Below, piece after piece: positions 7,870 through 62,142 of a DNA stretch of 64,000 bases; the first letter of the stretch is position 1, and the number at the start of each line of letters is the position of its first letter. The stretch is taken from IMG/VR virus record IMGVR_UViG_3300019776_000296, positions 3,762 to 67,761 of that record; one strand, 5' to 3'. This DNA is from a virus. The notes under the pieces are model-generated. The model had not been told where the DNA came from, did no database searches, and saw nothing but the letters and a program-made list of their open reading frames with translations. The translations under genes and the position numbers were made by a program.

Positions 7870-8312
7870 TCAAGGTAGTTAACCGCTACTGGGAACCCTT
7901 GTGTTGGGATTGTCAACACCTACTTAACTTTTCGGCCTACGAGTACTTCCAGTGGGAACGTGTTGGCGCAAAGTGGAAGCGCAAACGTCCTTGGGATGAA
8001 CTGTTGGGCTTCTTTGACCGCTTGATGAACATTGAGGGGTCTGCCGTTAACGAGGCGGTTCTGCTTGATCCTGAGACGGTCAAGTGGATGGCGAGTCAGG
8101 ATTCTGATCGCGGCGTGTATCGGCCACCAATCTTTGGGCATACCAAGGAAGTTAATCTGATGATGACTCAGATTGAGGTGGCTACTGGTAAGCCGTTGAA
8201 GCGTCCTTACATTCCCGGCCTTGAGCTACGGACGAGGCGCAAAGTCAACAAGACCAAGGACGCTATCGCTTCCGCTTTAGAGCGGAGCATACGTTTAGCT
8301 GAGGGGAACTAG
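7860..8312 (+). CDS. Tail assembly chaperone, frameshifted extension (fusion 7555..8312)
   Basis: Open -1 frame from the slippery site to the TAG overlapping the tape measure start. Confidence 0.8.
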   Translation, partial: GKIIKVVNRYWEPLCWDCQHLLNFSAYEYFQWERVGAKWKRKRPWDELLGFFDRLMNIEGSAVNEAVLLDPETVKWMASQDSDRGVYRPPIFGHTKEVNLMMTQIEVATGKPLKRPYIPGLELRTRRKVNKTKDAIASALERSIRLAEGN

Positions 8313-19120: not shown

Positions 19121-19594
19121 TTGTGCGGCAATACATTAGGAGCAGATGTGCGCGGAGTTATCCATCCACCAGACCCTAGTAATCCCAAGGGCATGGCATT
19201 CATCATGGGTGCCGGGTTCGTTGACCCTCGCGCCGGGAAGACGTGGGCTGATCGTGAGCCTATGGCACTTGTTCAATCGTGGGAGCCTACGTCTGAGTTG
19301 TGGTGGGAGCTTGGATTACGTTGGCACCCAGAGCTTGCCACTAAGTGGCTTAAGGGTGGCGGTCAGTTTCAGGTTGCTGAAATAGTTTCGGAGAAGCCTG
19401 AAGAGCGAACGCTTGAGCAGGACGCTGAGGAAGTCATGGATTTCCTTGCTAGCGAAAATCCTGAGTTTGCAAAGACTTTGAAGCGTGTGCGTGATTGCGG
19501 CTCCGACGAGGAGCGTGCTGCTCTGCTCCGCGAGTTTGAGCAGAACATCAAATCGATGACGAAGATGAGTGAATACATTAGGGGCGAAGAGTGA
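19121..19594 (+). CDS. Minor tail protein (DUF2744-like)
   Basis: SELWWELGLRWHPELATKW motif; synteny. Confidence 0.6.
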   Translation: MCGNTLGADVRGVIHPPDPSNPKGMAFIMGAGFVDPRAGKTWADREPMALVQSWEPTSELWWELGLRWHPELATKWLKGGGQFQVAEIVSEKPEERTLEQDAEEVMDFLASENPEFAKTLKRVRDCGSDEERAALLREFEQNIKSMTKMSEYIRGEE

Positions 19595-48896: not shown

Positions 48897-48963
48897 GCGT
48901 GTGCATGGCGGGAGTCGAACCCGCAGCACCAGGACGAATCCTGTTGCAGCCCAATGCATGCAC
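48897..48963 (-). ncRNA. tRNA-like element TLE1
   Basis: GUGCAUG/CAUGCAC acceptor; GCGGG-UUCGACU-CCCGC T-arm; D region reduced to CAUUGGGC; tail ACGC. Confidence 0.8.
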
Positions 48964-48971
48964 CCCCGGCG

Positions 48972-50051
48972 TTAGCCGATAGCGATCAGTTCAGGACGAT
49001 CCAGAACCTTCGCCACCGCAGTCAGCATGGTGCTGTCAGCGGCTGCGAATTCACCACGGATGGCGCGGTCATAGACCCGCTCCAACCGCGACACCGAACG
49101 AACGGGTGCGTAGTGATGCTGGTAGGTATTGAAAGCCTGCACAGCACCAAACACGGTGCCCTTCCACTGCTCCGACATTGGATCGGACATGTAGACGGCA
49201 TCGATTGCCTCCCTACGGTTTTCGGTCTTGGTGACCTTCGCCTTGGTTGAACCTTCCGGCGCGGGAGGTTCGATGATGTCCAGCACCTCAATCCATTTGG
49301 GGCGCGACAGCTTGATGCCCAACAACTCGTGGACGTAGTCGGTCATGTCATTGGCCGACTTGTCCAGAATTGAAAGTGCCTGCCGCACACCGGAAATGGT
49401 GTCAACGGACATCGACTGAGACGTGTGCTTGACCTTGAACTGCCGGTTAGCAGCCCGTGCCTCTGCCTTCAGTGCGGTGAACATGTTGTCGCACTTCAGG
49501 ATTCGATTGAAGGCACTGTAGCTAGTAGCTATGGAGCCATCCATCGATGTTGTGCAGAGGAGGAACGGCCAGAAATCCAGGCCGCTCCTGCCGTCGTGCA
49601 TCGTTTCCTCAAGACCGATCTCGACGGCAGCCTGTGCGCCGTTCTTCAGGGTCAGTGCCGACAGGACTCTTAGCGTGTCCTGCAACACATTTGAGATGTA
49701 ACGAATGAGCCACGTCTTGTAGTCATGGATACGGTAGGACGATTTGTGCCTACCCAGTTCCGTGCCATCGTCGGAACGCACAATGCCTTGGGCACCATGT
49801 GTCACAACAACTTTCACCGGAGTCATCACGCCGTCCTTGCCAATCGGGATGTAGATGTCTGCATCCTTCTTGCTGCACGGGATGAAGTTCCCGGTGGGAA
49901 CTGAGATCGCTTCGAAGTTGAACAGCAGTCGCTCGACTTCGCCTACCGGGATCGGGCCAGGGAACGTCGGGAGTGACCCGTCTGTCTGTCCGATCCAACC
50001 GTTGCGCTTCTCAGTGTTGCCAATGATTGCGCGTGCGATTTGTGTACCCAC
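48972..50051 (-). CDS. DUF932-family protein
   Basis: GIVRSDDGTELG...Y, PFLLCTTSMDGS, RILKCDNMF, GTVFGAVQAFNTYQHH motifs; likely GTG start at 50051. Confidence 0.8.
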   Translation of the reverse strand: MGTQIARAIIGNTEKRNGWIGQTDGSLPTFPGPIPVGEVERLLFNFEAISVPTGNFIPCSKKDADIYIPIGKDGVMTPVKVVVTHGAQGIVRSDDGTELGRHKSSYRIHDYKTWLIRYISNVLQDTLRVLSALTLKNGAQAAVEIGLEETMHDGRSGLDFWPFLLCTTSMDGSIATSYSAFNRILKCDNMFTALKAEARAANRQFKVKHTSQSMSVDTISGVRQALSILDKSANDMTDYVHELLGIKLSRPKWIEVLDIIEPPAPEGSTKAKVTKTENRREAIDAVYMSDPMSEQWKGTVFGAVQAFNTYQHHYAPVRSVSRLERVYDRAIRGEFAAADSTMLTAVAKVLDRPELIAIG

Positions 50052-50082
50052 TTTAGTGGATTCCCTTCTCTTCCTTGTGTTT

Positions 50083-50190
50083 TGGTGCAAACCCTGCACC
50101 GGGGGTACTGCAACTGGCGACTGAGCCAGCAGGACACGGCACCGTGCTGTCACCACGGTGCCGTGCTACAACCCGCTCAGTCATACCCCC
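50083..50190 (-). ncRNA. Long-hairpin processing element LH2
   Basis: GACUGAGC...GCACGGCACCGUG/CACGGUGCCGUGU...GCUCAGUC, then a GGUGCA/UGCACC hairpin. Confidence 0.6.
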
Positions 50191-50255
50191 AATTTACAGA
50201 GGGGGTGAGTCTTGCTCAGACGAGCAACACTCAAGGGTTGTTGTGGGACAACGGA

Positions 50256-50888
50256 TTACGCCTCTTCGATGTTGTCGATGTTGTAATCCTCGTAGTACGA
50301 GATATCGATTTTGTCGTAGATGTAATCCGACAGGTTGTTGTCGATCTCTTCTCGCGCATTGTCTTCCGACGTTGCCTCGACTTCGACCTCAACAACGTAG
50401 GTGACGTTCACGACAGCAGTGAAAGATCGCTTAATCCCTTCCAGGCCAAGCTCTTCCATCACCTCGCTGAGTTCTTTGCGCTTGTCGTCATCATCCAAAT
50501 GGGTGACGGCCCACTCAGCGAGTGCATCCTGGGCATCTCGCTTGAAAGCGTTGAACTGATCTTCCAAGTTAGAGCACCTACGATTCGCGCTTTGGTAGCT
50601 GATCCGTTCTGCGCCAACAGCTTCCACGAGCAACTGGCTCACACCAGTCAGTGTCATGGGAGTGTTGGTGCTGTCCAAACGGATTCTCCAATCCGTTTCT
50701 TGATCAGCGCGAACTGGTTGCACCATCTTCGCGCTGCTGTTGAAGACGTAGGTCATAACGAGAGAGTTATGGGTGTCGGTCTTACCCGTCCAGATACCAA
50801 ACTCCTCTTCGCCCCTCCATGAGGTGCGAGCCAACTCGACTCCAGCGACAGCATTTTCGACCAGATTGGCGAAAGTGATTGTCTCCAC
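50256..50888 (-). CDS. Hypothetical protein with acidic C-terminus
   Basis: 210 aa; SD GAAGGGA; GTG start. Confidence 0.7.
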   Translation of the reverse strand: METITFANLVENAVAGVELARTSWRGEEEFGIWTGKTDTHNSLVMTYVFNSSAKMVQPVRADQETDWRIRLDSTNTPMTLTGVSQLLVEAVGAERISYQSANRRCSNLEDQFNAFKRDAQDALAEWAVTHLDDDDKRKELSEVMEELGLEGIKRSFTAVVNVTYVVEVEVEATSEDNAREEIDNNLSDYIYDKIDISYYEDYNIDNIEEA

Positions 50889-50940
50889 GGTGATTTCCCT
50901 TCATTGTGTGCCGCAATTGAACCCGCTTGCGGTGAGCGGT

Positions 50941-51014
50941 ACTGCTGTTGACTATCTGAGCCAACAAGAAAGCGACAGTGCGAAACATGCACTGCCGCAA
51001 TCCAATCGGTTCAG
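50941..51014 (-). ncRNA. Long-hairpin processing element LH3
   Basis: CUGAACCGAU...GCGGCAGUGC/GCACUGUCGC...UGUUGGCUCAG; the 3' arm can refold as UGUUGGCU/AGUCAACA. Confidence 0.55.
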
Positions 51015-51215
51015 CTAGCGGAGTCGATCACGGAACAGTGCGTGCCACCTGATCCACTCCTCTAAGCCTCTTGCATCCCACAACGGCATGCCATCGATGA
51101 CGCTATGCGTCGGCGGCGGCGTGCCATCGTAACGTCTGCGCCAGTTCGCAACTGCCGCAGGAGTAACACCCAGGACATCCGCGATATGGGCACCGCCCCA
51201 AAGCATTTCGCTCAT
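51015..51215 (-). CDS. Small HTH DNA-binding protein (excisionase/MerR-like)
   Basis: AHIADVLGVTPAAVANWRRR...P.P...PLW. Confidence 0.8.
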   Translation of the reverse strand: MSEMLWGGAHIADVLGVTPAAVANWRRRYDGTPPPTHSVIDGMPLWDARGLEEWIRWHALFRDRLR

Positions 51216-51439
51216 GGCTGCGCCCAACCAACACATCTGGTTGTTACCGGATTGCACTGCACCGGGCCGTTAGTCCACCCTCCGTAGTAGCCGGGGATAT
51301 TCCAGGTGTCCTGCAACTGCCCGTTCCACGGAGCAGGCTGACAGCCACTCTGGTTCATCACCCCCTGGCACGGAGAAGCAGAACTGACCGGCGCACAAAC
51401 AAACGCCAAAAGCATTGCAACACAAACGATTACACGCAT
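51212..51439 (-). CDS. Small secreted Cys-containing protein
   Basis: Signal peptide MRVIVCVAMLLAFVCAPVSSA; four Cys in the mature part. Confidence 0.65.
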   Translation of the reverse strand: MRVIVCVAMLLAFVCAPVSSASPCQGVMNQSGCQPAPWNGQLQDTWNIPGYYGGWTNGPVQCNPVTTRCVGWAQP

Positions 51440-51594
51440 CAGTAACCCACCTCATCAAGCAACGCTTCCGCTTTGCGGATCAGGTACTGGATCGCCTCAC
51501 GCTCGTCTGCGCTGTTCCCGTTGCGCGACATCTCCCTGACATCGTCAAGGGCTGTACGCAAAGAGATCAATGCATCTTCGCTGACTTCCTCCAT
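51439..51594 (-). CDS. Small hypothetical protein (51 aa, below ORF-track cutoff)
   Basis: MEEVSEDALISLR...; SD GGAAGGG; stop overlaps the next ATG. Confidence 0.6.
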   Translation of the reverse strand: MEEVSEDALISLRTALDDVREMSRNGNSADEREAIQYLIRKAEALLDEVGY

Positions 51595-51644
51595 GATCTT
51601 CCCTTCCAATTATGTTGCGCCACACCATGATTGGTATGACATCA

Positions 51645-51712
51645 ACGTGTGCCAACTGGGAGTCGAACCCAGAGCAATCAACCCGAAAGTTGTTGCAGCC
51701 CAATGCAAGCAC
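51645..51712 (-). ncRNA. tRNA-like element TLE2
   Basis: Imperfect GUGCUUG/UUGGCAC acceptor; CUGGG-UUCGACU-CCCAG; CAUUGGGC; tail ACGU. Confidence 0.72.
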
Positions 51713-51719
51713 CCAATGA

Positions 51720-52247
51720 CTAGACCCGACGCGGCTCAGCCGAATCGATCCAGTCCAACCGCCACGGGAACAAATCCCGGTAGCAGTCAGCGCACACATC
51801 AAACTTCACACGATGCGAGGCATGCGTGACGTAGATGATGTGGTCAACCTGTAACTCGTAACGATCACACGGATCGCACTTGTCACCACAGTTCATGCAG
51901 ACCAGGTAGTCGGCATCGAACTGAATTTCGTTGGGAGTCTTACTCATTCATTCACCTCCCTTCGACTTGATCATGTTGGCAACAGCCAGAGCCAGCTTCA
52001 CTGGCCCTTCCTTGACTGTCATCAGATGAAGACCTGACTCGTGGTCAATCCACCAATGCCCGTTGTCGGACAAGCGAATTCGGTGATCTGGATTCTCCAG
52101 GTCAGCCTCGCCACGATGAGCAGCACTCCACACCAGCAGCACCGGATCGCCAGTGCCACCGTTGTCACGCACCGGCCTGCAATACAGGCCATGCTGCTGA
52201 CGCAACAGATGGGTGGTGTTCATCAGGATGTTCAAATCGTTTCTCAT
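51720..52247 (-). CDS. Two hypothetical genes (51948-52247 and Cys-rich 51720-51947)
   Basis: SDs present; adjacent stop and start. Confidence 0.6.
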
Positions 52248-52293
52248 TGGTTCCCTTCCAATTGTGTTGCACCCCAACGGTGTTGGGGTATCA

Positions 52294-52362
52294 ACGTGTG
52301 CATGGTGGGAGTCGAACCCACAGCAAAAACTTTTGAAAGTCATTGCAGCCCAATGCATGCAC
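52294..52362 (-). ncRNA. tRNA-like element TLE3
   Basis: GUGCAUG/CAUGCAC; GUGGG-UUCGACU-CCCAC; CAUUGGGC; tail ACGU. Confidence 0.8.
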
Positions 52363-52368
52363 TACCAC

Positions 52369-52859
52369 CTAGTCGGGATCGCGACGAGGCGGCTCACCAG
52401 CCCACTCAGCAGGAGTCATGCTCCACCTCCACGCCAAAGGGTTAGGAGGCAGGTCACAGCCCTGCACAGGGCCAAGCCGTACCGCCTCATCCTGACAGGC
52501 AAGGCAGCACGGATTCCCTTGTGGGCCATACAGTCTCGCAAACAATGAATTCATCTTGCGAGCCATCAGTTGCTCCGCGAGGTGACTGCGTGATGGATCA
52601 GTTCAGCCAATCGCGTTGCGTCACACCAGTATCTGTGAACATCCTCCGCAGCACGCTGCTCGTAGCCGACGTGCATGATGCGAAAGCCATCGTCCAGGTC
52701 ATTGACGGCATCCCAGATGACTGCCGTCTCGTACTTGACCTTGGTGTCCACATACCAGGGAGGCAGAGCGATTGTCGAAACAGTCACTGTGCCAATGGAT
52801 TCCAGTTCAAACTCGTTGTGCCGAATCTTGACCGGCATAACGGATTCGTAATCAAACAT
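52369..52859 (-). CDS. Two coupled hypothetical genes (52566-52859, 52369-52566)
   Basis: SD GAAGGGAAG; TGATG coupling. Confidence 0.6.
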
Positions 52860-52899
52860 GGTGTGTGCTTCCCTTCACTGTGTTGTGTATTGCATTGCT

Positions 52900-53324
52900 G
52901 CACAACGGAATTCAATTCGGACAATCGAAAAGCCTTGGAAACTGTGAAGTTCCAAGGTTGTTATAACCCACTGCCGTCGCGAGACAGGGGGGGTCGGACT
53001 CACGAATCCGGCTTCCGGTATGGCAACCGTCAACCACAGGTCGAGGTGGGTAGGAAGCTGGGCTAACTACCCGCCCCGAATTGGTGACGGCAGACATAGT
53101 CCACCCCCTGGTTAGGTGGCCTAACTACCACCTGGAAGTAGACAGACTGATCCCCTAAATCGAATGGCGAAATTTTCGAATCCCGTTGCGCCGGTTGTCG
53201 ATTCAACCGTGACCGGGCACGCGCACCGCATGCCCAGACATGGACGAACCGAATCACGTTGTGCCACAAGAGAATTGAAATGTGGTGGGGCGCAACCACT
53301 TTCGCGGCACGCCCCACCACCACG
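52900..53324 (-). ncRNA. Candidate multi-stem structured RNA region
   Basis: ~425-nt gap with several strong stems and possible pseudoknots (see findings). Confidence 0.4.
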
Positions 53325-53525
53325 TCAGCACCTAGCGGTATCACCAGAGATGTTGTGCGACAACGCATTCCGTGTTACCGCCTGTGAAAGGTGGTGGCAC
53401 AGTTCATACGTTGCCTCATACAACGCTTCAGAAGTCGCGTCACCATCTGAGGTGACGTGAGCGTCAGCGTATCCCTGGTGGCATTCGATGGCACGATTGA
53501 GCGCATCGATGAGTGCCTGAGACAT
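53325..53525 (-). CDS. Hypothetical protein
   Basis: ACACAAGGGAGAGAAC leader. Confidence 0.65.
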   Translation of the reverse strand: MSQALIDALNRAIECHQGYADAHVTSDGDATSEALYEATYELCHHLSQAVTRNALSHNISGDTARC

Positions 53526-53565
53526 GTTCTCTCCCTTGTGTTTTCAACTGCCCCAACATGGGACA

Positions 53566-53634
53566 TGGTGTGCCGCAGTGGAATTGAACCACCGTCACCC
53601 TGAAGGGTGATACGCACCAATTGCGTTGCGGCAC
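53566..53634 (-). ncRNA. tRNA-like element TLE4 (cloverleaf, ACCA end)
   Basis: GUGCCGCA/UGCGGCAC; ACGCA-AUUGG-UGCGU; UCACCC-UUCA-GGGUGA; GUGG-UUCAAUU-CCAC; ACCA. Confidence 0.8.
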
Positions 53635-53641
53635 TACACGA

Positions 53642-54040
53642 TTACTTGGACTTCGACGGGTGGTAGTCGCCACCGTCCCAGTGACCGCGCTTCATCATGG
53701 CATCTGCCATGACCCGAATGACCTTGTGCGCCTTGACATTTCGCTTAACCAGGTGGCCTTCACCCTGGTTGTCCAGCGTGTAAACGTCATACCGTCCCGG
53801 TGCCACGTCAGTGACCACCAGGTCGAACACGCCGTCATAGTATTCACGCTGCGAAATGCCTTGCGTCACAACAACTTTGCCGCTCTTGCCGGGGATGCAT
53901 GCCCTGGAAAGTGTTGCGACAGTTGCGGTTTCGCCACGGAAGTCCGTCACCGTATCGCCGGGGAAGACCTGCTTGCCGGTCTTCTCGTTGAAGGCGAACA
54001 GAGCGGGACGCTTGACGAAAGTGATTGCGTTGCTTGCCAT
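53642..54040 (-). CDS. Hypothetical protein
   Basis: SD AGGGA; PGDTVTDFRGE motif. Confidence 0.65.
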   Translation of the reverse strand: MASNAITFVKRPALFAFNEKTGKQVFPGDTVTDFRGETATVATLSRACIPGKSGKVVVTQGISQREYYDGVFDLVVTDVAPGRYDVYTLDNQGEGHLVKRNVKAHKVIRVMADAMMKRGHWDGGDYHPSKSK

Positions 54041-54116
54041 TTCAGATTCCCTATCATGTGTTGTGTTGTGCCACACCAGGATTGGTGCAGCCTGCTCCAG
54101 CCGGATGGCCGGGGCA

Positions 54117-54180
54117 TTGTGGACTGTGGGACGTTTGAAGCCCTACCCCACAACAGCCGAAAGCTGTTGCGGCACAGTCC
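54117..54180 (-). ncRNA. tRNA-like element TLE5
   Basis: GGACUGUG/CACAGUCC; single long arm; GGGC-UUCAAAC-GUCC; ACAA. Confidence 0.75.
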
Positions 54181-54195
54181 ATTCGAGATGTAGTG

Positions 54196-54513
54196 CTAGA
54201 TGCGGTACTGGCTACCGGCTTCGAAATCGCCTGCCAGCCAACGGATTACGGTCTCCCGCTTACGGGCCGTCTTGCCGTCGAGCATCGTCCACTCGCCACC
54301 AGACCAGCGGTCTGCGCCGGATGGCCTGACGTGCAACCATGCGGCAGTGATGCCGCACCGGCTGCTGTAGACAACCGTCACCCGGTATCGCGCCAGCTTT
54401 GTGGTCTGGTCGAAGGTGACCTCCATGCCGCCACGGAATTCGGTTGTGTCCCAACCGTTTTCGTTGGCGGTGCTGTTGATCATGGCCGGGGTGAAGTTAG
54501 CCAATGCACTCAT
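54196..54513 (-). CDS. Hypothetical protein
   Basis: SD GGGAG before ATG at 54513. Confidence 0.65.
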   Translation of the reverse strand: MSALANFTPAMINSTANENGWDTTEFRGGMEVTFDQTTKLARYRVTVVYSSRCGITAAWLHVRPSGADRWSGGEWTMLDGKTARKRETVIRWLAGDFEAGSQYRI

Positions 54514-54571
54514 TTCTCTTGTCTCCCATGCGTTTTGAATCATCAACTGCCACACCGGAATTGGTGCGGCA

Positions 54572-54646
54572 TGGTGTGGCTGGAGGAATCGAACCTCACC
54601 AGCATGACGCTGGCACCTCACCCCAAACACGTTGGGGCGCAACCAC
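54572..54646 (-). ncRNA. tRNA-like element TLE6 (ACCA end)
   Basis: GUGGUUG/CAGCCAC; two internal arms; GAGG-UUCGAUU-CCUC; ACCA. Confidence 0.8.
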
Positions 54647-54656
54647 ATTCGAAGAG

Positions 54657-55379
54657 CTACTTGCTCTTCTTCTCCTTCTTCACGGAGAACAGCACAGACT
54701 TCCGACCGTAGATGCACAAACCGCAACGGGCACAAGCACTTCCGCGCTGATCGATCAGCGGCAGTGCCCCGTTATTCTCCGGACACCTTGTGGCACCAGG
54801 GAATTCGGCCTGAGCATCAGCGAAAGTCTCGCCAACGTAGGCGACGTTAATGCCTTGCGCCGCAAGGTGTTTCGCCGCTGTGATGTTGTCGCGGTCACCG
54901 CTGAAGTACAGCCCAAGGTTGGGCAGGTTCAGCTTGTGCAGGTACACGGCAGAACCGGGCACCCTGGTGTACACCCAGAACTGTGTGTCCTGGTGTGCCG
55001 CAACAACTTTCGACCAGGCAATCATGTAGTCGGTGCTGAAGAAGTCACCGTCCCAATGGATTCGGAAAAGCTTTGGCGCAGAACGCTTCTCGCATTCGGC
55101 CTCGAAATCCGTGATCATCTGGTCGAGCATGTCGAACATCTCGCTGCGTGAAATGCCTTGCAGTGCATCCCAATTGCGCTTCAGCAGTGCGGAGACTGCG
55201 GGGCGCAACCGTTCAAGCTTGCCTGCGTAGCAGATCAGCGCACAGAACGCGGTCTGTGCAATGCACGAGAACGCTTCACCGGAGGGGATGCCAAAGCTGT
55301 TGGCTACCAACGGCTTTGTGCCAGCCTTGTTCACGGCAGAAGCGACCTTAGTGTCATTACTGCGCTGGAGATTGGACAT
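54657..55379 (-). CDS. GP88-like (radical-SAM-like Cys cluster) protein
   Basis: SFGIPSG...C...C...CYA, FRIHWDGDFFS, FWVYTR, CARCGLC motifs. Confidence 0.75.
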   Translation of the reverse strand: MSNLQRSNDTKVASAVNKAGTKPLVANSFGIPSGEAFSCIAQTAFCALICYAGKLERLRPAVSALLKRNWDALQGISRSEMFDMLDQMITDFEAECEKRSAPKLFRIHWDGDFFSTDYMIAWSKVVAAHQDTQFWVYTRVPGSAVYLHKLNLPNLGLYFSGDRDNITAAKHLAAQGINVAYVGETFADAQAEFPGATRCPENNGALPLIDQRGSACARCGLCIYGRKSVLFSVKKEKKSK

Positions 55380-55439
55380 GTTGTCTTACCTCTTCCCTTG
55401 TGTGTATCTTCAACTGCCGCAACGGGATTCGTTACAGCA

Positions 55440-55497
55440 TGGTGTGCCGCAGAGGTTTCGAACCTCAGCGTCACGCTAGCCAAAAGGCTTGCGGCAC
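55440..55497 (-). ncRNA. tRNA-like element TLE7 (58-nt miniature cloverleaf, ACCA end)
   Basis: GUGCCGCA AGCC-UUUU-GGCU AGCG-UGA-CGCU GAGG-UUCGAAA-CCUC UGCGGCAC ACCA. Confidence 0.85.
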
Positions 55498-55509
55498 TAG
55501 TGGTTTGGC

Positions 55510-55836
55510 TTAGAGGTAGGTGAATTCGTAACGGATGCCACGAGATTCGGTGTCGTCCAAGCCGGTGTTGATGTAGAACTCGATCAGCCTGTCGTCATCG
55601 ATGGCAGCCGAAAAGTATTCGGCCACAGTGCTTTTCGTACCGGACAGGTAGTTCATGCACGTCCACAGCAGCGACTCGTAGTCGCTGGTGTAGCTGTGTT
55701 CGTAATACCTTGCGCCGCAATCGATGTCGATGCCACAGGCGAACTCTTGCATGGTCACGATGCCACGCCGCACGGTGTCGTGCAGCGCAACAACGTAGCC
55801 AAGGGCATCGTTGCCGTGAAGAATCTTTGTGATCAT
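55510..55836 (-). CDS. Hypothetical protein
   Basis: AAACACAAGGGAGAGAAC leader. Confidence 0.65.
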   Translation of the reverse strand: MITKILHGNDALGYVVALHDTVRRGIVTMQEFACGIDIDCGARYYEHSYTSDYESLLWTCMNYLSGTKSTVAEYFSAAIDDDRLIEFYINTGLDDTESRGIRYEFTYL

Positions 55837-55879
55837 CGTTCTCTCCCTTGTGTTTACAACCTGCACCCGGTCGGATGCA

Positions 55880-55960
55880 TTGTGCGACTGGAGGATTCGA
55901 ACCTCACCGCCACCAGGACGGCACCTCACTGCATCACGAGATGTGTTGCAGCGCAGTCGC
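55880..55960 (-). ncRNA. tRNA-like element TLE8
   Basis: GCGACUG/CAGUCGC; two arms with an AGGU linker as in TLE6; GAGG-UUCGAAU-CCUC; ACAA. Confidence 0.8.
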
Positions 55961-55967
55961 TTTCGAG

Positions 55968-56210
55968 CTAGACCACCTTGCCGTTACGGATGTTGGCGTA
56001 CCACTTGCGGTTCGTCCACGGGTTCGGCCCGACGATCACGTCAGACGACGTGAGTTGCGGGTCATCGATGCCGTAGAACGTGCCGCGATTGTTGATCGCC
56101 GACGTGTCTTCCAGACGCACGGAATCCGGTGCGTAGCTTACGAATTCGCGGAATGCCTTCTTGCTTGCGAACTCGCCGCCGGATGCGTCGGTAGCGTAAA
56201 GGTTTGACAT
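55968..56210 (-). CDS. Hypothetical protein
   Basis: SD GGGAG; SKKAFRE...VGPNPW..RKWYA motif. Confidence 0.7.
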   Translation of the reverse strand: MSNLYATDASGGEFASKKAFREFVSYAPDSVRLEDTSAINNRGTFYGIDDPQLTSSDVIVGPNPWTNRKWYANIRNGKVV

Positions 56211-56231
56211 GGTATCTCCCAATTGTGTTGC

Positions 56232-56314
56232 GCCACATACCGTGTGGCCCGGCCTGCCCAGTAAGGCAAGGACACAGCCAGACGAATCTGGCTGTGCCCC
56301 AACGTCACTGGACG
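56232..56314 (-). ncRNA. Long-hairpin processing element LH4
   Basis: CCAGUGA-CGUUG-GGGCACAGCCAGA-UUCG-UCUGGCUGUGUCC-UUGCC-UUACUGG. Confidence 0.7.
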
Positions 56315-56554
56315 TTACTTGCGTCGGAGAACAGGGTTGACGTTAGGCACATGTGCCACAACGATTTTCAGCTCCACGCAATACCCTTCAGGGCAAAGGG
56401 ATTGCATGTGGTCAACAGCGTTGCGAATGTGTAATGCGGTGTCGCGCTGCCGTTTTGCCACGCCGGTCATACCCTCACGCTCAGCCCGGTCTGCCTCGCA
56501 TTCAAATGCGACGACAGTGTCCATCGAATTGATGTGGATTGAGTACTCAGACAT
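56315..56554 (-). CDS. Hypothetical protein
   Basis: SD GGGAG before ATG at 56554. Confidence 0.65.
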   Translation of the reverse strand: MSEYSIHINSMDTVVAFECEADRAEREGMTGVAKRQRDTALHIRNAVDHMQSLCPEGYCVELKIVVAHVPNVNPVLRRK

Positions 56555-56601
56555 GTTGTCTCCCAATGTGATTCACTACTGCGCTACCAGGTAGCAGCGC
56601 A

Positions 56602-56667
56602 TGGTGGGTTGCCGGGGATCGAACCCGTCACAGTGTGAGCCGCCCGTAATACGTTGCGACACAACCC
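56602..56667 (-). ncRNA. tRNA-like element TLE9 (ACCA end)
   Basis: GGGUUGU/GCAACCC; CGGG-UUCGAUC-CCCG; ACCA. Confidence 0.78.
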
Positions 56668-56673
56668 ATTTTG

Positions 56674-56832
56674 TTACCGGCGTGCCCAGTCGAGCCACCA
56701 CAAGGTGGCCCACGAGTACGGCCCGATAAGCAGGACGAACAGTGCGCCGTTCCAGATCACAGCGAGGTTGGCAAGGCCAACGAACGCCGTAATGGCAAGC
56801 AGCACAACAAGTATCAACTTGAGTGTGTTCAT
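56674..56832 (-). CDS. Small membrane protein (52 aa, below ORF-track cutoff)
   Basis: MNTLKLILVVLLAITAFVGLANLAVIW...; SD GGAG. Confidence 0.6.
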   Translation of the reverse strand: MNTLKLILVVLLAITAFVGLANLAVIWNGALFVLLIGPYSWATLWWLDWARR

Positions 56833-56875
56833 CTTTCGTTTCTCCATCCTTACTGCTGCACCGTGATTCGATGCA

Positions 56876-56932
56876 TGGTGCTACTGCGGGAGTCGAACCC
56901 TTGCCGCCCGTAATACGTTGCGGCACAGTAGC
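56876..56932 (-). ncRNA. tRNA-like element TLE10 (ACCA end)
   Basis: GCUACUG/CAGUAGC; one arm UGCCGC/GCGGCA; GGG-UUCGACU-CCC; ACCA. Confidence 0.78.
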
Positions 56933-56940
56933 TTTCGAGA

Positions 56941-57240
56941 TTAGACGAGATCGTGGTGCAGGTACTCTTCGTCGTGCCCTTCACCGTCGAGGAACTGAAC
57001 CCGAATGCGGGTATCGATGGTCACCTTGCGGCTGTCGAGCAGGCTGAAAAGCGTTGCGGCACAGTCACTGTCGAGGTGGCTCTGGAAGATGACCCACTCA
57101 CGGTTGAAGTAGGCGATCTCGTGGTATTGCGTTGCCCCGTAACGTGATTCGGGGCTGCCTACCTGAATGAAGCTGTGCGACAACGCACGCTCCACACCAT
57201 CGACCACGACAGTTCCTGTGCTGATCTGTGTTGCCTTCAT
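56941..57240 (-). CDS. Hypothetical protein
   Basis: SD GGGAG before ATG at 57240. Confidence 0.65.
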   Translation of the reverse strand: MKATQISTGTVVVDGVERALSHSFIQVGSPESRYGATQYHEIAYFNREWVIFQSHLDSDCAATLFSLLDSRKVTIDTRIRVQFLDGEGHDEEYLHHDLV

Positions 57241-57261
57241 CTCTTGTCTCCCAACTACTTT

Positions 57262-57352
57262 CGCTGCATGCCGTGCAGCACGGTCTGCCAATGAGGCAAG
57301 GACACAGGCAGGTACATTGCTGTAACTGCCTGTGCCCCAACGCCATTGGACG
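57262..57352 (-). ncRNA. Long-hairpin processing element LH5
   Basis: CCAAUGG-CGUUG-GGGCACAGGCAG...CUGCCUGUGUCC-UUGCC-UCAUUGG; covaries with LH4. Confidence 0.7.
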
Positions 57353-57592
57353 TTAGAGATAGCTTGCGGAGTAGACGAACCCGTCGCTGAACGCATCACC
57401 GGCGACCTTGCCATGCTTGCGTTCGTAGTTCTGTTCGTCGCGCTCCAGGTCATACCCGTCACGCCACGCCGCATTCACACCAGCTTTGAAGTGCCGCAAC
57501 AGGTTTCGGTCTTCCAGGTACTGGGCGTAGCCGCCGTCGTCACCGGGGAATTCCTCCAGCATGCGCTGCACATCTGCGATTGTGTATGCCAT
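57353..57592 (-). CDS. Hypothetical protein
   Basis: ACACAAAGGGAG leader. Confidence 0.65.
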   Translation of the reverse strand: MAYTIADVQRMLEEFPGDDGGYAQYLEDRNLLRHFKAGVNAAWRDGYDLERDEQNYERKHGKVAGDAFSDGFVYSASYL

Positions 57593-57614
57593 TTCCGTTA
57601 TCTCCCTTTGTGTT

Positions 57615-57683
57615 TGGCTTGTCTCTTCAGTGGGTAGGTAGCCAACCTGTCCCAGACCCGTTGCAACGCAACGGGTTTCGACA
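57615..57683 (-). ncRNA. Type II hammerhead ribozyme HH1 (canonical core, GUC site)
   Basis: UGUC GAAA CCCGUUGC-GUU-GCAACGGG UC|UGGG..AGGU-UGGCU-ACCU..CCCA CUGAAGA GACA AGCCA; loop I UGGCU pairs with the 3' AGCCA. Confidence 0.92.
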
Positions 57684-57687
57684 TTAT

Positions 57688-57975
57688 CTAGTGGCCGCAA
57701 TCCTCAGCGGGTTGCAGCCAGACGCTCACCATGTCGCGGTGGATGCCCTCCGTGCTGCCGTTGTCAACCGTCAACATGCCGTTGACGAAAAGGCTTGCAC
57801 TGGAAGGGATTCCGAACATCTCCAGCACCGTGGTGACAACGTCATTGGCAGACATGGCCTGTCCCGCAACGCCGCCAATGATGAAGGACGGCGTGTCGAG
57901 AATGGTTTTCTGCCAACCGTTTTCGATCACGGTGCGAAGGATGCCCACGACATGGTTTCCGTAGTAAGTGGTCAT
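57688..57975 (-). CDS. Hypothetical protein
   Basis: CACAAAGGGAGAGAAC leader. Confidence 0.65.
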   Translation of the reverse strand: MTTYYGNHVVGILRTVIENGWQKTILDTPSFIIGGVAGQAMSANDVVTTVLEMFGIPSSASLFVNGMLTVDNGSTEGIHRDMVSVWLQPAEDCGH

Positions 57976-57997
57976 TTCTGTTCTCTCCCTTTGTGAT

Positions 57998-58066
57998 TGG
58001 CTTGTCTCGTCAGTACGGCGGGAGCCACCCAACCGCAGTCCCGGTGCGTTGCACCGGGATTCGACA
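57998..58066 (-). ncRNA. Type II hammerhead ribozyme HH2 (variant U15.1-A16.1, GAC site)
   Basis: UGUC GAAU CCCGGUGC-AAC-GCACCGGG AC|UGCGG-U-UGGG-UGGCU-CCCG-CCGUA CUGACGA GACA AGCCA. Confidence 0.85.
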
Positions 58067-58070
58067 GCTA

Positions 58071-58400
58071 CTAGCTGTAGTAGCGTCCGACCACAACCCG
58101 CTCGTAATCCGGTGTGGTGCAACCGAATTCGATGGGCCACCGCACCAGGACACCGCTGAAGAACGAGTCGGTCTGGATGCCGTCCCAACGCTGCAACGAA
58201 TCCGGCACGCCAGCCGCGAAATGCGTTGGCACATAGCTGAATTCGTTCACGTCGTAGAAGCTGCCCAGGTACTGGAAGATACGCGGCGAGAAACGATCCT
58301 CGCCCTCGACGTAGTCGAACCAGTGCTGCTCAGCGACCGGCACCTGATCAACCGAAATCAGTTCGCGGGGAACATTATTGGTGATGATGGTGATGGACAT
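58071..58400 (-). CDS. Hypothetical protein
   Basis: ACACAAAGGGAGAGAAC leader; WDGIQTDSFFSGVLV motif. Confidence 0.7.
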   Translation of the reverse strand: MSITIITNNVPRELISVDQVPVAEQHWFDYVEGEDRFSPRIFQYLGSFYDVNEFSYVPTHFAAGVPDSLQRWDGIQTDSFFSGVLVRWPIEFGCTTPDYERVVVGRYYS

Positions 58401-58447
58401 TGTTCTCTCCCTTTGTGTTTGGGTCTGCCTCACCGGACGGTGAAGCA

Positions 58448-58505
58448 TTGTGCGACTGCGGGATTCGAACCCACGCTGCCCGGTAATGCGTTGCAGCACA
58501 GTCGC
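58448..58505 (-). ncRNA. tRNA-like element TLE11
   Basis: GCGACUG/CAGUCGC; arm UGCUGC/GCAGCG; UGGG-UUCGAAU-CCCG; ACAA. Confidence 0.78.
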
Positions 58506-58512
58506 TTTCGAT

Positions 58513-58836
58513 CTAGGCCGAACGTGTCACCAGGTACAGCCTGCCCTGGTGGCGCGAGGTGGTGACGGAGTACTTAACCGGCGGGATTGTCCACTGCCCG
58601 TTGGCATGCCACGCAATTGGCGTGGCGTAGCTGTAGACAGCGAAGAAATCCGTTGCCGCAGAAGCGGTTTCGAAGTCGCCGTGGTACTCGTCAGGCAGCT
58701 TGCCGACGCTGGTCGGATGCGACCAACCACCACCAGTGAAGATGGGGCGAGTCGAACCGAAAACCGTTCCGTTGCAATTGAATTCGCGACGGTCACGGAT
58801 CAGCGTGGGGATGCTGCTGAGGGTTGCCTTGATCAT
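58513..58836 (-). CDS. Hypothetical protein
   Basis: SD GGGAGG; VYSYATPIAW...YSVTTSRHQ motif. Confidence 0.7.
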   Translation of the reverse strand: MIKATLSSIPTLIRDRREFNCNGTVFGSTRPIFTGGGWSHPTSVGKLPDEYHGDFETASAATDFFAVYSYATPIAWHANGQWTIPPVKYSVTTSRHQGRLYLVTRSA

Positions 58837-58858
58837 TTCTCTTACCTCCCAATAGGTT

Positions 58859-58927
58859 TGGCTTGTCTCGTCAGTACGCCGGGAGCCACCCGAACGTAGT
58901 CCCGTTGCTAGGCAACGGGATTCGACA
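58859..58927 (-). ncRNA. Type II hammerhead ribozyme HH3 (variant U15.1-A16.1, GAC site)
   Basis: UGUC GAAU CCCGUUGC-CUA-GCAACGGG AC|UACG-UU-CGGG-UGGCU-CCCG-G-CGUA CUGACGA GACA AGCCA. Confidence 0.85.
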
Positions 58928-58929
58928 AA

Positions 58930-59334
58930 CTAGTCGAGCTTCAGATCAGCGGGGAACGTGAACCCGCCGACATCACTCAAGCAGTCGGACATGAAGATCA
59001 GCGAGTCGAGGTCATCGAAGTCGGGATGGTCACTGAAGTCGAAATCGATTATCTCGCTTACGTTTTCGCCATCCGTGCTGTACCAGAAGTCATCGTCGCG
59101 GTCTGCTGTGGCGAGGTCGATATCCTGTTGGATACCTTGCATCTCATCCATTGCCGCGACGAAAGCCTCTGTGTGAGCAGTGATTTCGTTCTCGTCAACG
59201 TCGATCTCGTCTTCCTTGTAACCAACCAGCGTGACCAGTTCTTCGATGGCGAAGATTGCCGCCTGAAGGGCTGTCTCCCAACGCATTTCAGCAGTTGCTG
59301 GCATGCCGTTGATGTAGCCGCTGTTGTTGATCAT
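58930..59334 (-). CDS. Highly acidic protein (possible DNA mimic)
   Basis: 134 aa with 34 D/E versus 4 K/R by hand count; SD GGGAG. Confidence 0.7.
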   Translation of the reverse strand: MINNSGYINGMPATAEMRWETALQAAIFAIEELVTLVGYKEDEIDVDENEITAHTEAFVAAMDEMQGIQQDIDLATADRDDDFWYSTDGENVSEIIDFDFSDHPDFDDLDSLIFMSDCLSDVGGFTFPADLKLD

Positions 59335-59389
59335 GTTGTCTCCCAATGTGTTACACGGAACCGCCGTGCCGGTCTGCCTCAGTGAGGCA

Positions 59390-59449
59390 ACGTGGACTGT
59401 GGGACGTTCGAAGCCCTACTCCCCAACGAATTACGTTGGGGCACAGTCC
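59390..59449 (-). ncRNA. tRNA-like element TLE12
   Basis: GGACUGUG/CACAGUCC; CCCCAACG/CGUUGGGG arm; GGGC-UUCGAAC-GUCC; ACGU. Confidence 0.78.
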
Positions 59450-59461
59450 CTTTTGAACTAG

Positions 59462-59788
59462 TCAGCACCTAGCGTCGTGCCAGCCTTGAGCGAGTTTCTC
59501 TGCTGCCGCAAGGGTTTTCACCGTGCGCTGGTGCAGAATGATTGTCTTGCCGTGATGCTTGCCTGCCACCTTGTTCTGACGGCGGCGTGCCTGTCGTCCG
59601 TACCGTGCATTCGGATCACCGAAATGCGCTGTGAGAGAGCGACTTTGGAGGTACTCACGGGCAGCCTTGGGGTCGCTGATACGTTCCAGCACGGTGAATG
59701 TCTCACCGCAGTAGATGATGTAATCGACGTTGTGCCCCTTGGCATCTCGCACAATGCCCTGGACGCGCCAGTTCAATGTGTTTGACAT
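59462..59788 (-). CDS. Hypothetical basic protein (first clear gene of the leftward region)
   Basis: AAACACAAAGGGAGAGAAC leader before ATG at 59788. Confidence 0.65.
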   Translation of the reverse strand: MSNTLNWRVQGIVRDAKGHNVDYIIYCGETFTVLERISDPKAAREYLQSRSLTAHFGDPNARYGRQARRRQNKVAGKHHGKTIILHQRTVKTLAAAEKLAQGWHDARC

Positions 59789-59820
59789 GTGTTCTCTCCC
59801 TTTGTGTTTGGGGTGGTTAC

Positions 59821-59897
59821 CTGCCGGGTAGCAGGACAGGAAACAGGGTGCATTGCTGCACCCTGTATCCCGCTCAGACACCCGAAAGTGCCCGAAA
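59821..59897 (-). ncRNA. Long-hairpin element LH6
   Basis: GCGGGA-U-ACAGGGUGCA-GCAA-UGCACCCUGU-U-UCCUGU, then UGCU-ACCC-GGCAG. Confidence 0.5.
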
Positions 59898-62142
59898 CAC
59901 AATGGAATTGGGAAAGAGAGTACGCAGACAACATGAACCCGCCGCCAGTGGTATCACCGCACCTAAGCAAGCGTTTGGGAGAGCATGACGTACCGGCAGT
60001 TCAGCGGTTATCTGCGTTCGAATCACCTTGTCGCACACGGCTTTTGCTACTGCGCCTACTTAAACCAGCGGGTACAAACTTGCTGGCACCACGTTGCGTT
60101 GCAACGGGTTTCGGGTATCTGCCAAGCAGCTACTTACCTGGGTGATTCTCTCTGTTTTGGATTGCCTGCCAACGCTTTTGGGCGTTCTGGGCTGATTCGC
60201 TGGAAGAGGCGGGCTGCATGTACTCGTAGTATCTCCCGTTGGGAGACTTGCGAATTCAAGACCTAGCGTCTCAGTCACTTTGTCTCGCTTAACCTTTCCC
60301 ACTCCGTCCAGGTCAATCGACAATGTGCTGAAACATTCGGCACCGCACTGTAGATCTACTTCCGCACCGCCAGAATGCGACTGGCGCAACGCACGTCGAA
60401 ATCCCGTGCGTGCCTGCCGTGATTGTCCTGCCCCATGCCGCCTTCGACGTGATGCCGCGTGCGGGTGGATGGCCGGGTCTGCCGGTCTGGGTGCTGCTCC
60501 GCTGATTCAATCACGCCAGCACCCTGGTAGCAAGCACCCTATTTCCGCAGGTCAGAGGGTGTTTTTGAAACCTAATTTCGGGCACGTCAGATACGAAATC
60601 GTGAAAAGCGTTGGTAACAAACAACTTTCGAGTCCTAGCCGAACGCCCACCAGGACGAACGCCAACCCTGTTAGACACCCATATGAAACACGTTGCACCG
60701 CAAAGGATGTCGCTGGTTTGGCGCTAATCAGTGCAGGTCAAAGCGGTACTTGCATTGTGAAGCAACACATTTTGCCTGGTCACATCCCGTAGCAAACATA
60801 ATTCGGCACACCGCGGCTCTGGCGCCCCTTGAATCGGCGCAGGTCAACCAGGGTGAGCGACGAAACTCTGAGAATATCCGGCTAACTTGCGACCAGCACA
60901 CTTAATTTGTTTGCTGGTCGCACTTCCGAAATCGGACAATTGCCTGGTCACATACGGTGTGGGGTATTCGGCCAGCTAATTTTTACCCGTGCGTCAACCG
61001 TCGAGTGACATTGCGCCACAACAACTTTCGTCAGCGGTGCCCGATTGGGCTAATTTCTTAGGAAGTTTGCTGGGTAAATTTTCCACGAGTTTCCTAGCAA
61101 AATGCCAGCAAATTTTTGATAGAAACGGACATGTGTTGTGGCACAACAGATTTCGAGCGTCTACTCGCACAAATTGGTGCCGACACGCCGTGTCCAGCAA
61201 ACTTTAAGTTACCGAACGCTGATCGGCCAATCTGAAAGTGACTGTGCGCCAATGGATTTCGGAGATAGTTAGCACATCTCACTATGTGTGATTGTTGAAT
61301 CCGCAACATCTAGCTGGCCTAACAAAGGTAAGCCTTACCTAACCTGCTACCAACTGGTTGGTTGGATACGTCACTAAACCGACTAATGGTACAACCGTTG
61401 TGCCGCAACAACATTCGACCAAACATGCCACCTCAGCACGCCGAAAGTTGTTGTCTCCCTTTGTGACGGCACAACCCCCTATACCTAGCTGTACTAATCA
61501 CTTCTGTAACATCCGACCCCCGAAAAGTTTGCCCGAAACGCAAACACTTTCAAACACCCATTGGGGCACAACAACTTTCGCGACGTGACCAGGGAAAAGA
61601 AAGTTCTTGCGGATGCAACAATGTTTGCTAGACCACCCGAAACCCACCAAACCACCCCCGCGAAAAGCGTTGCGGCACAACAACACCATTTCAAAGTTGG
61701 CCGCTACCAACACATTTCAAAACACGCCTCGACGGCCACCAGGTCACCAGGACACGCCACCACGAGATGCGTTGCGCCACAACAACCCACAAAACACGCC
61801 CCGAACGAAACCCGTTGCGGCACAACAAAGCCGACAACCTCGAAACCGTGAAAACTGTTGCGTGCCAACAACTTAATAACCCACTCCCGGCCACCAGGTC
61901 GGCCCAAACATGGCCTGCCCCAACGCCATGCCATCCGCACCACCAGGACAGGCCACTACCGGCACCGTTCCCAATGGAATTCCCGGCCACCACCAACAAC
62001 ATTGCGCCGCAACGTAACTCGCCGCAGCCCGGTTGAATTGCGGCACGCCGCAACGGAATTCACCGCCACCTCAGACCCGCATCTCAGACCGCCGTCGCGG
62101 CCACCAGGTAGCACCGTCTCGCACAGTTTCGGAAGGCCATCC

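Follow-up and report, generated by a model that had tools for sequence, protein, structure and literature searches.

Hammerhead ribozymes that follow the NHH rule, instead of the strict consensus in which an A15.1-U16.1 pair gives a NUH cleavage triplet, were reportedly engineered by Kore et al. in 1998. Under this rule, which is also given in a 2021 review (PMC8495972), NUH is preferred and NAH can be cleaved at lower activity, with U being selected in vitro opposite A16.1 (the first H position; Fukuda et al. 2014, PMC3923133). A natural hammerhead with a U15.1-A16.1 pair was reported by Perreault et al. (2011, PLoS Comput Biol, PMC3088659) to self-cleave, "albeit less efficiently", and the lower efficiency was ascribed to the lost contact between A15.1 and G5. 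As far as its accessible text goes, that paper places such variants in phage or prophage-type contexts, describes the first natural type II hammerheads together with their pseudoknot, and reports tandem hammerheads flanking single prophage genes as well as polycistronic RNAs of about 2 kilobases (kb) that were cleaved in vitro. Its search pipeline rejected matches without A15.1-U16.1 unless the context suggested a function. In the literature that we searched a U15.1 hammerhead appeared only in this paper, and the 15.1-16.1 pair is not taken up in the accessible part of Roberts et al. 2023 (PMC9901934). Here we describe three tandem type II hammerheads (HH1, HH2 and HH3) in a 64-kb stretch of viral DNA, hereafter the window, which covers bases 3762-67761 of a 67,761-nucleotide (nt) IMG/VR virus record (IMGVR_UViG_3300019776_000296). 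Two of them, HH2 and HH3, carry the U15.1-A16.1 pair. We consider it rather probable that HH2 and HH3 are active, slower-cutting type II hammerheads that process mRNA between the cistrons of an actinophage-like operon.

A regular-expression scan for CUGANGA gave three intergenic sites on the minus strand with full hammerhead context (57630, 58013 and 58874). The three elements, each 72 nt long and located in an intergenic spacer on that strand, are the following (window coordinates):

57613-57684, minus strand: HH1, canonical type II hammerhead (A15.1 at 57676, U16.1 at 57656, C17 at 57655; 77.3 bits with model R2, see below), outside the interval 57998-58927 to which an earlier reading of the sequence alone applied
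57996-58067, minus strand: HH2, type II hammerhead with flipped pair (U15.1 at 58059, A16.1 at 58039, C17 at 58038)
58013-58007 and 58062-58060, minus strand: core strands of HH2, with the sequences CUGACGA and GAA, respectively
58038/58037, minus strand: predicted cleavage site of HH2, between these two positions
57999-58026, minus strand: candidate pseudoknot of HH2, with GGCU in loop I (58026-58023) complementary to AGCC in the tail (58002-57999)
58857-58928, minus strand: HH3, type II hammerhead with flipped pair (U15.1 at 58920, A16.1 at 58900, C17 at 58899)
58899/58898, minus strand: predicted cleavage site of HH3, between these two positions
58887-58884 and 58863-58860, minus strand: equivalent pseudoknot segments of HH3

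The 5' half of each element consists of UGUC (the 5' strand of stem II), GAA, N15.1, a stem III of 8 base pairs (bp) with a 3-nt loop, N16.1 and C17, and the 3' half of a stem I hairpin with the loop UGGCU, CUGANGA, GACA (the 3' strand of stem II) and AGCCAA. The topology is that of type II, with stem II open (flanks UGUC/GACA) and stems I and III capped by loops. The sequences read ...GUC GAAA CCCGUUGC-GUU-GCAACGGG UC ... CUGAAGA GACAAGCC in HH1, ...GUC GAAU CCCGGUGC-AAC-GCACCGGG AC ... CUGACGA GACAAGCC in HH2 and ...GUC GAAU CCCGUUGC-CUA-GCAACGGG AC ... CUGACGA GACAAGCC in HH3. The core strand C3 U4 G5 A6 N7 G8 A9 is intact (CUGACGA in HH2 and HH3, CUGAAGA in HH1), each of the three has G12 A13 A14 as GAA where stems II and III join, and position 17 is an H (C17), followed in each element by a U1.1-A2.1 pair. 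Loop I (GGCU) and tail (AGCC) are complementary in all three elements; covariation of these segments (GGCA/UGCC) was seen only in two copies of the G001 array described below, the tail having been fixed by the search pattern in the wider sample.

HH1 has the A15.1-U16.1 pair of the strict consensus, whereas HH2 and HH3 have U-A and thereby a GAC triplet. This flipped closing pair of stem III, in which Watson-Crick pairing is kept, is the only departure of HH2 and HH3 from the consensus. The sequence-only reading had described the change from GAAA...UC to GAAU...AC as a compensatory flip within the core, and this is confirmed by the minus-strand sequence, the rest of the core being unaltered. 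The register is unambiguous, since the placement of C17 gives U-A at N1.1-N2.1 in both variants; an alternative register (U bulged, C-G as 15.1-16.1, and A17) was rejected because the one-base shift gives a C-A mismatch at 1.1-2.1. Judged by their sequence, HH2 and HH3 lie outside the strict hammerhead consensus but match the described natural U-A variant, and they are acceptable as hammerheads because the literature, in the accessible text of PMC3088659, accepts an active natural variant of this kind. The same text shows that the natural core variant U15.1-A16.1, for which a check of prior reports had been advised, was already published in 2011.

Family membership was assessed with covariance models. 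A scan of viral contigs with the tail pattern CTGANGAGACAAGCC gave at least 133 matches in at least 126 stretches (the window's own and very near records left out), and a hammerhead descriptor applied to the matches listed parsed 90 as type II hammerheads (83 distinct) and left 43 unparsed. Position 17 of these 90 was C in 85, A in 4 and U in 1. Model R1, made from HH1-HH3 and three similar copies from another virus, was used for aligning other sequences only. It aligned 98 type II hammerheads from this tail scan and from some metagenome loci, with the window, the contig G001 and the loci L160 and L174 (see below) excluded, and from these 98 sequences model R2 was made, since Rfam scored HH2 and HH3 below its gathering threshold and omitted HH1. 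Over the 64-kb window R2 gave exactly three matches at an expectation value (E) of at most 1, namely HH1 (77.3 bits), HH3 (71.0 bits) and HH2 (68.5 bits), all at full length, with E-values of about 1e-16 to 2e-14 and no non-standard pair flagged.

A combined alignment of 111 sequences (104 distinct), which was fitted to the model so that its pair counts lean towards structure, had 93.0% of its cells forming standard pairs, versus 64.9% in column shuffles (none of 500 shuffles reached the observed value) and at most 49.2% with slid partners. Two-sided changes were present in 17 of the 18 alignment pairs. The 15.1-16.1 pair was AU in 100 sequences, UA in 4 and unpaired in none, where the frequency of UA (4/104) is overstated as two of the four came from a search aimed at the variant. 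Minimum-free-energy folds of the single sequences gave a three-way junction. Because the R2 matches, the pairing in the alignment and the single-sequence folds agree, the elements are, on these models and with the exception of the flipped pair, solid members of a subfamily of type II hammerheads.

At the gathering threshold Rfam found no hammerhead in the whole window. In E-value mode it listed HH2 when the whole window was searched and both HH2 and HH3 when a region of 1.5 kb was searched, in either case below threshold, and the canonical HH1 was never reported by the type II model (RF02276), even at E <= 10 in the 1.5-kb search. That this model missed HH1 while it reported two core variants places the subfamily at the edge of the curated model. 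The expectation that consensus-based searches would miss the variant therefore holds only in part: HH2 and HH3 do score below the gathering score, and the 2011 pipeline, as described in the accessible text of PMC3088659, rejects anything other than A15.1-U16.1, but the flipped pair is not the sole cause of the Rfam miss because canonical HH1 was missed too. The sub-threshold Rfam scores could also be taken to mean that HH2 and HH3 are no hammerheads at all, but a chance match or a derivative of a tRNA-like element, the more so as a 10-mer, UCGAAUCCCG, is common to HH2, HH3 and the T arm (58461-58471) of an adjacent tRNA-like element. We regard this as highly improbable: R2 matched each of them over its full length with E of about 1e-14, none of the three stems is missing, nor H17, the tail motif or any part of the CUGANGA and GAA cores, and HH1, with GAAA, is built in the same way.

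HH2 and HH3 agree at 61 of 72 positions, compared with 55 of 72 for HH1 and HH3 and 52 of 72 for HH1 and HH2, and they have the flip, C7 and most of stem I in common. Stem III of HH3 is that of HH1 save for the flipped closing pair. The 11 differences between HH2 and HH3 comprise two in the flanks, three in loop III, one in a bulge, one one-sided change (G-U to A-U) and two two-sided compensatory pairs (G14-C24 to U14-A24, and G35-C50 to U35-G50). All of them fall outside the core, stem II, loop I and the tail, and the core positions other than 15.1-16.1 (C3, U4, G5, A6, G8, A9, G12, A13, A14 and C17) are identical. The divergence that the sequence-only reading saw in the remainder of the stems is thus modest; it includes the compensatory changes of pairs 14-24 and 35-50. 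Since HH2 and HH3 are sister copies, the flip counts within this genome as one event, and the simplest history is probably a single flip in their common ancestor that was then retained. The two copies in which the flip was said to be retained would accordingly represent one event rather than two.

The variant was found again elsewhere. A variant-specific pattern (TCGAATN{35,65}CTGANGAGACAAGCC), in which the tail GACAAGCC is fixed so that only variants with this tail were sought, gave 52 matches in metagenome contigs, including two true variants, L160 (core GAAU-CGGCGCGCC...GGCGCGCCG-AC; R2 69.0 bits) and L174 (core GAAU-CCGUCGG...CCGACGG-AC; R2 57.1 bits). Their stems are unlike those of HH2 and HH3, with the same GAAU...GAC core, and neither locus has genes in common with the window. 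In both loci the hammerhead is followed directly by a Shine-Dalgarno sequence and start codon, and that of L160 also comes directly after a stop codon. L160 is on a contig of 40.3 kb, of which the fetched 3-kb locus has 71.6% guanine plus cytosine and contains a serine-recombinase-like open reading frame (ORF). The recurrence of the flip in these unrelated loci argues for a tolerated, functional variant rather than for decay, and the independent flips in L160 and L174 weigh more than the retention in HH2 and HH3.

Other matches to the variant pattern were rejected. In metagenome contigs, L136, L155, L162, L169 and L171 parsed as canonical hammerheads with an incidental TCGAAT, L154 was a canonical hammerhead by model R1, L163 and L168 gave spurious U-G parses, and the remaining matches were not hammerheads. 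The sole match in viral contigs (L129) was false, as TCGAAT sits there in the stem III loop of a canonical hammerhead, and none of the 15 matches in species-representative genomes was a hammerhead.

The three hammerheads belong to a series of closely packed small genes with strong ribosome-binding sites of the GGGAGA type, which runs on the minus strand from about 60 kb to about 47 kb. The genes next to HH2 and HH3 are, in the order of the strand:

58930-59334, minus strand: gene D, 134 amino acids, no family match in PHROGs or Pfam; its stop codon is 1 nt upstream of HH3
58513-58836, minus strand: gene C, 107 amino acids, phrog_32689, of unknown function; about 20 nt, which include a Shine-Dalgarno sequence, separate the HH3 tail from its start codon
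58071-58400, minus strand: gene B, 109 amino acids, of unknown function; it ends with UAG UAG immediately upstream of HH2
57688-57975, minus strand: gene A, 95 amino acids, phrog_28867, of unknown function; downstream of HH2 and upstream of HH1

The hammerhead spacers are 93-95 nt long, the element starting 1-4 nt past the stop codon and leaving about 20 nt to the next start. A gp88-like protein encoded 2.3 kb downstream shares about 59% identity with Mycobacterium phage proteins and has matches in Streptomyces phages as well, so that the virus fits an actinophage. No terminator-like site was found in 56000-60500, for which reason a reading of the hairpins as intrinsic terminators was rejected, and the sole promoter-like match in this region is a sigma-70-like one at 60172-60145 on the minus strand (TTGGCA, 16 nt, GAGAAT), upstream of the hammerhead genes. 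Because of this single upstream promoter-like site and the lack of terminator-like sites, the genes that flank the hammerheads are probably co-transcribed. On the plus strand, the structural arm of the genome holds two very long ORFs, 8312-15316 (2,334 amino acids) and 19591-28407 (2,938 amino acids).

We propose that HH2 and HH3 would be part of a long polycistronic transcript that runs leftward through small genes of the early type, in which each hammerhead would cut itself 3' of C17, the loop I/tail pseudoknot helping to hold the core together. Of the two products, the upstream mRNA would have a 3' end formed by the stem III hairpin and carrying a 2',3'-cyclic phosphate, and in the downstream mRNA a 5'-OH and the stem I hairpin would precede the Shine-Dalgarno sequence. 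From what is generally known about RNA decay in bacteria, cleaved ends of this kind would protect the mRNAs.

Among the INPHARED phage genomes no match was obtained by megablast with 57000-60000 nor by blastn with HH3, and protein queries against IMG/VR with genes A, B and D and the gp88-like protein gave no relative. For gene C there were two weak matches only, one of 38% identity (L130) and one of 12 residues (L131), and R1 found no hammerhead on these two records. The closest hammerheads found were those of G001 (the IMG/VR contig of L086-L088), a complete virus record of 52,446 nt that carries six tandem hammerheads within about 4 kb on the minus strand (L202/L204; G001:C1:10839-14632). 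These are type II hammerheads of 68-72 nt that are nearly identical to HH1-HH3 in stem III (CCCG-Y-UGC...GCA-R-CGGG), in the tail and in loop I, but G001 and the window have no genes in common except for matches over hammerhead DNA and one weak match of 21% identity. The occurrence of near-identical cassettes in phages that are otherwise unrelated suggests that hammerhead cassettes may move between phages. Two of the G001 copies (L204:2005-2072 and L202:1929-1996, both minus strand) have GGCA in loop I and UGCC in the tail in place of GGCU and AGCC, so that the proposed pseudoknot is preserved by a change on both sides.

Parts of 57300-59400 are also contained in three public DNA runs (X1-X3). 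A 15-kb contig of X2 covers HH2 (57979-58458, 28 differences) and has another sequence at the place of HH3; a 186-nt contig of X3 has an HH3-like copy (58856-58926, 3 differences) after gene C-like sequence; and in contigs of X1 gene B-like and gene D-like ends are joined to an HH1-like 5' half, not to HH2 or HH3. In these relatives from lake-water and other metagenomes, genes that are about 90-95% identical are combined with different intergenic elements. Since the contigs pair the same genes with other elements, the intergenic elements appear to be shuffled among relatives.

The one assayed natural example of 2011 and the engineered NHH-rule ribozymes lead us to think that HH2 and HH3 are probably active, though slower than HH1. 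Several observations weigh against this. In earlier in vitro work, as reported in PMC3088659, the wild type was at least 10-fold more active than 15.1/16.1 mutants, and as the natural variant is less efficient too, the activity of HH2 and HH3 at physiological Mg2+ is not assured. The RF02276 scores of HH2 (25.9 bits) and HH3 (26.7 bits) are below the gathering score of 37. Among the matches listed for the tail pattern, all 90 parsed hammerheads had A15.1-U16.1 (flip 0/90), as did the six copies of G001, which read GAAA...UC without exception (flip 0/6), and this rarity could mean that the flip is mildly deleterious. The X1 contigs give a weak hint that relatives may use the canonical form at the spacers concerned, none of the listed runs that contain this stretch is recorded as RNA, and with 11 differences between sister copies, which give little power, the evidence for purifying selection within this genome is modest.

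Some of these observations would fit equally with HH2 and HH3 being dead, or negligible in activity at cellular Mg2+, and hence relics of duplicated hammerheads that are either kept as structured spacers (end-protecting hairpins or RNase targets) or not yet decayed. A15.1-U16.1 is described in the accessible text of PMC3088659 as the most conserved pair of the family, mutation of which costs at least 10-fold in activity, and the flip is absent from the 90 parsed hammerheads. With 11 of 72 positions differing, the intact core could reflect a recent common origin, and neighbouring spacers hold quite different structured elements, so that a ribozyme is not obligatory there. Decay does not, however, readily account for a clean two-sided flip in place of a mismatch while the core, the pseudoknot and stem II are otherwise unhit, nor for two two-sided compensatory changes by which stems III and I stay paired. 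The same flip moreover occurs with a fully intact core in two unrelated loci, and a natural U15.1-A16.1 hammerhead has been shown to cleave (PMC3088659). We therefore regard relics as unlikely, and active but slower ribozymes as the better explanation of HH2 and HH3.

The sequence-only reading had gone a step further in proposing that the flip is maintained by selection, possibly for slower cutting that tunes processing. Positive selection of this kind would let the junctions of the operon be cut at different rates, thereby tuning gene dosage or timing. It would fit with the presence of one canonical and two variant copies in one operon, with the slower cleavage of the published natural variant (PMC3088659) and with the like position of the flipped hammerheads of L160 and L174, which immediately precede a Shine-Dalgarno sequence and start. 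Yet no other position covaries with the flip (N7 of the four variants is C, C, U and A), G001 runs six junctions on six canonical cores, and relatives apparently swap whole intergenic elements between junctions, which argues against tuning that is specific for a junction. Of the earlier proposal, the natural variant core stands as real and recurrent (L160 and L174), whereas selection for slowness seems quite doubtful to us.

Another finding was that most other spacers of the operon (48900-59461, minus strand) are filled by tRNA-like elements, of which there are at least ten. Examples are:

48900-48963, minus strand: tRNA-like element
52297-52362, minus strand: tRNA-like element
53569-53635, minus strand: tRNA-like element
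54574-54648, minus strand: tRNA-like element
55860-55951, minus strand: tRNA-like element
56590-56670, minus strand: tRNA-like element
56860-56935, minus strand: tRNA-like element
58451-58505, minus strand: tRNA-like element in the spacer between gene C and gene B, with an acceptor stem and a T arm (GGUUCGAAUCC) and no anticodon arm (Rfam tRNA model 16.8 bits, below threshold)
59380-59455, minus strand: tRNA-like element

These elements have an acceptor-like stem of 7 bp and a T arm with a loop of the GGUUCGAAUCC type; a normal anticodon loop is lacking in all of them, and ACCA follows several. T-loop motifs numbered ten, all on the minus strand, versus 1.1 expected by chance. ARAGORN called no tRNA among the elements, and their scores with the Rfam tRNA model were 16.8-29.2 bits. 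As they take the position of the hammerheads between stop codon and Shine-Dalgarno sequence, the tRNA-like elements may act as processing signals of the RNase P/Z type, and their presence in equivalent spacers in place of hammerheads suggests that a signal for RNA cutting of any kind suffices at these junctions. A literature search on tRNA-like intergenic processing elements in phages gave nothing relevant among the matches listed, and the alternation of hammerheads and tRNA-like elements in equivalent spacers was not found described in the accessible part of PMC3088659.

The 10-mer UCGAAUCCCG is created by the flip, in HH2 at 58055-58064 and in HH3 at 58916-58925 (minus strand), and is the same as the T loop plus 3' T stem of the neighbouring tRNA-like element (58458-58467, minus strand); this may be a coincidence or a trace of exchange between element types. 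A conserved AUGC-hairpin-GCAG module is located 3' of each tRNA-like element, after the 3' strand of the acceptor and before the ribosome-binding site (e.g. 58415-58450 and 55855-55890). A third conserved spacer element, at 57241-57352 and 56211-56314 on the minus strand, consists of CGUCCA-R-UG-R-CGUUGGGGCACAG, a long hairpin and CUGUGUCCUUGCCU...GGCAG, and gave no match in Rfam.

A more far-reaching interpretation would be that U15.1-A16.1 marks a recurrent, selected subclass of slow or conditional hammerheads, which together with canonical hammerheads and RNase P-type tRNA-like elements would form interchangeable cassettes between stop codon and Shine-Dalgarno sequence, as a graded system of punctuation. 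We hold this to be rather improbable; if true, such a system would set the cutting speed for each junction of an early operon, and hence the amounts and lifetimes of single-gene mRNAs. Our understanding of the ribozyme itself is not changed by HH2 and HH3, because the variant, its reduced activity, the tandem arrangement in phages and the pseudoknot are all published. What is added to the one natural U15.1-A16.1 hammerhead reported in the accessible text of PMC3088659 are four natural sequences (HH2, HH3, L160 and L174), which show the flip again in phage-like contexts that are unrelated, the core being otherwise perfect. These are useful for relaxing search descriptors and for choosing natural scaffolds for the cleavage of NAH sites. 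The more unusual feature is the combination of hammerheads and anticodon-less tRNA-like elements in equivalent spacers of one operon.

Compared with known systems, HH1-HH3 share with Rfam RF02276 (Hammerhead_II) the topology, both core strands (CUGANGA and GAA), loop I (UGG-GC) and the tail (AGCC-AA); HH2 and HH3 differ from its consensus at 15.1 and 16.1. Engineered hammerheads of the NHH type likewise cleave NAH triplets (e.g. GAC) if 15.1 pairs with A16.1 (PMC3923133); unlike HH2 and HH3 these are trans-acting, and their activity on NAH is lower than on NUH. The variant of Perreault et al. (PMC3088659) has the same U15.1-A16.1 swap in a natural hammerhead, and in PaP3 (NC_004466), one of the phages given in that paper as bearing a variant, Rfam at E <= 5 gave no hammerhead and a descriptor of three topologies gave one weak, unconvincing candidate, so that PaP3 could not be used for a direct comparison. 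Unlike in the account of 2011, as far as its accessible text goes, the flip is present here in two of three tandem copies in one operon, with two more examples in metagenomes. The tandem hammerheads in prophages of Clostridium scindens, Azorhizobium caulinodans and Agrobacterium tumefaciens (PMC3088659) are also closely spaced around single small genes, and the role proposed for them is the processing of long phage transcripts into gene-length mRNAs. The window differs from those prophages in host range and genes, as it is actinophage-like, and in that its hammerheads alternate with tRNA-like elements.

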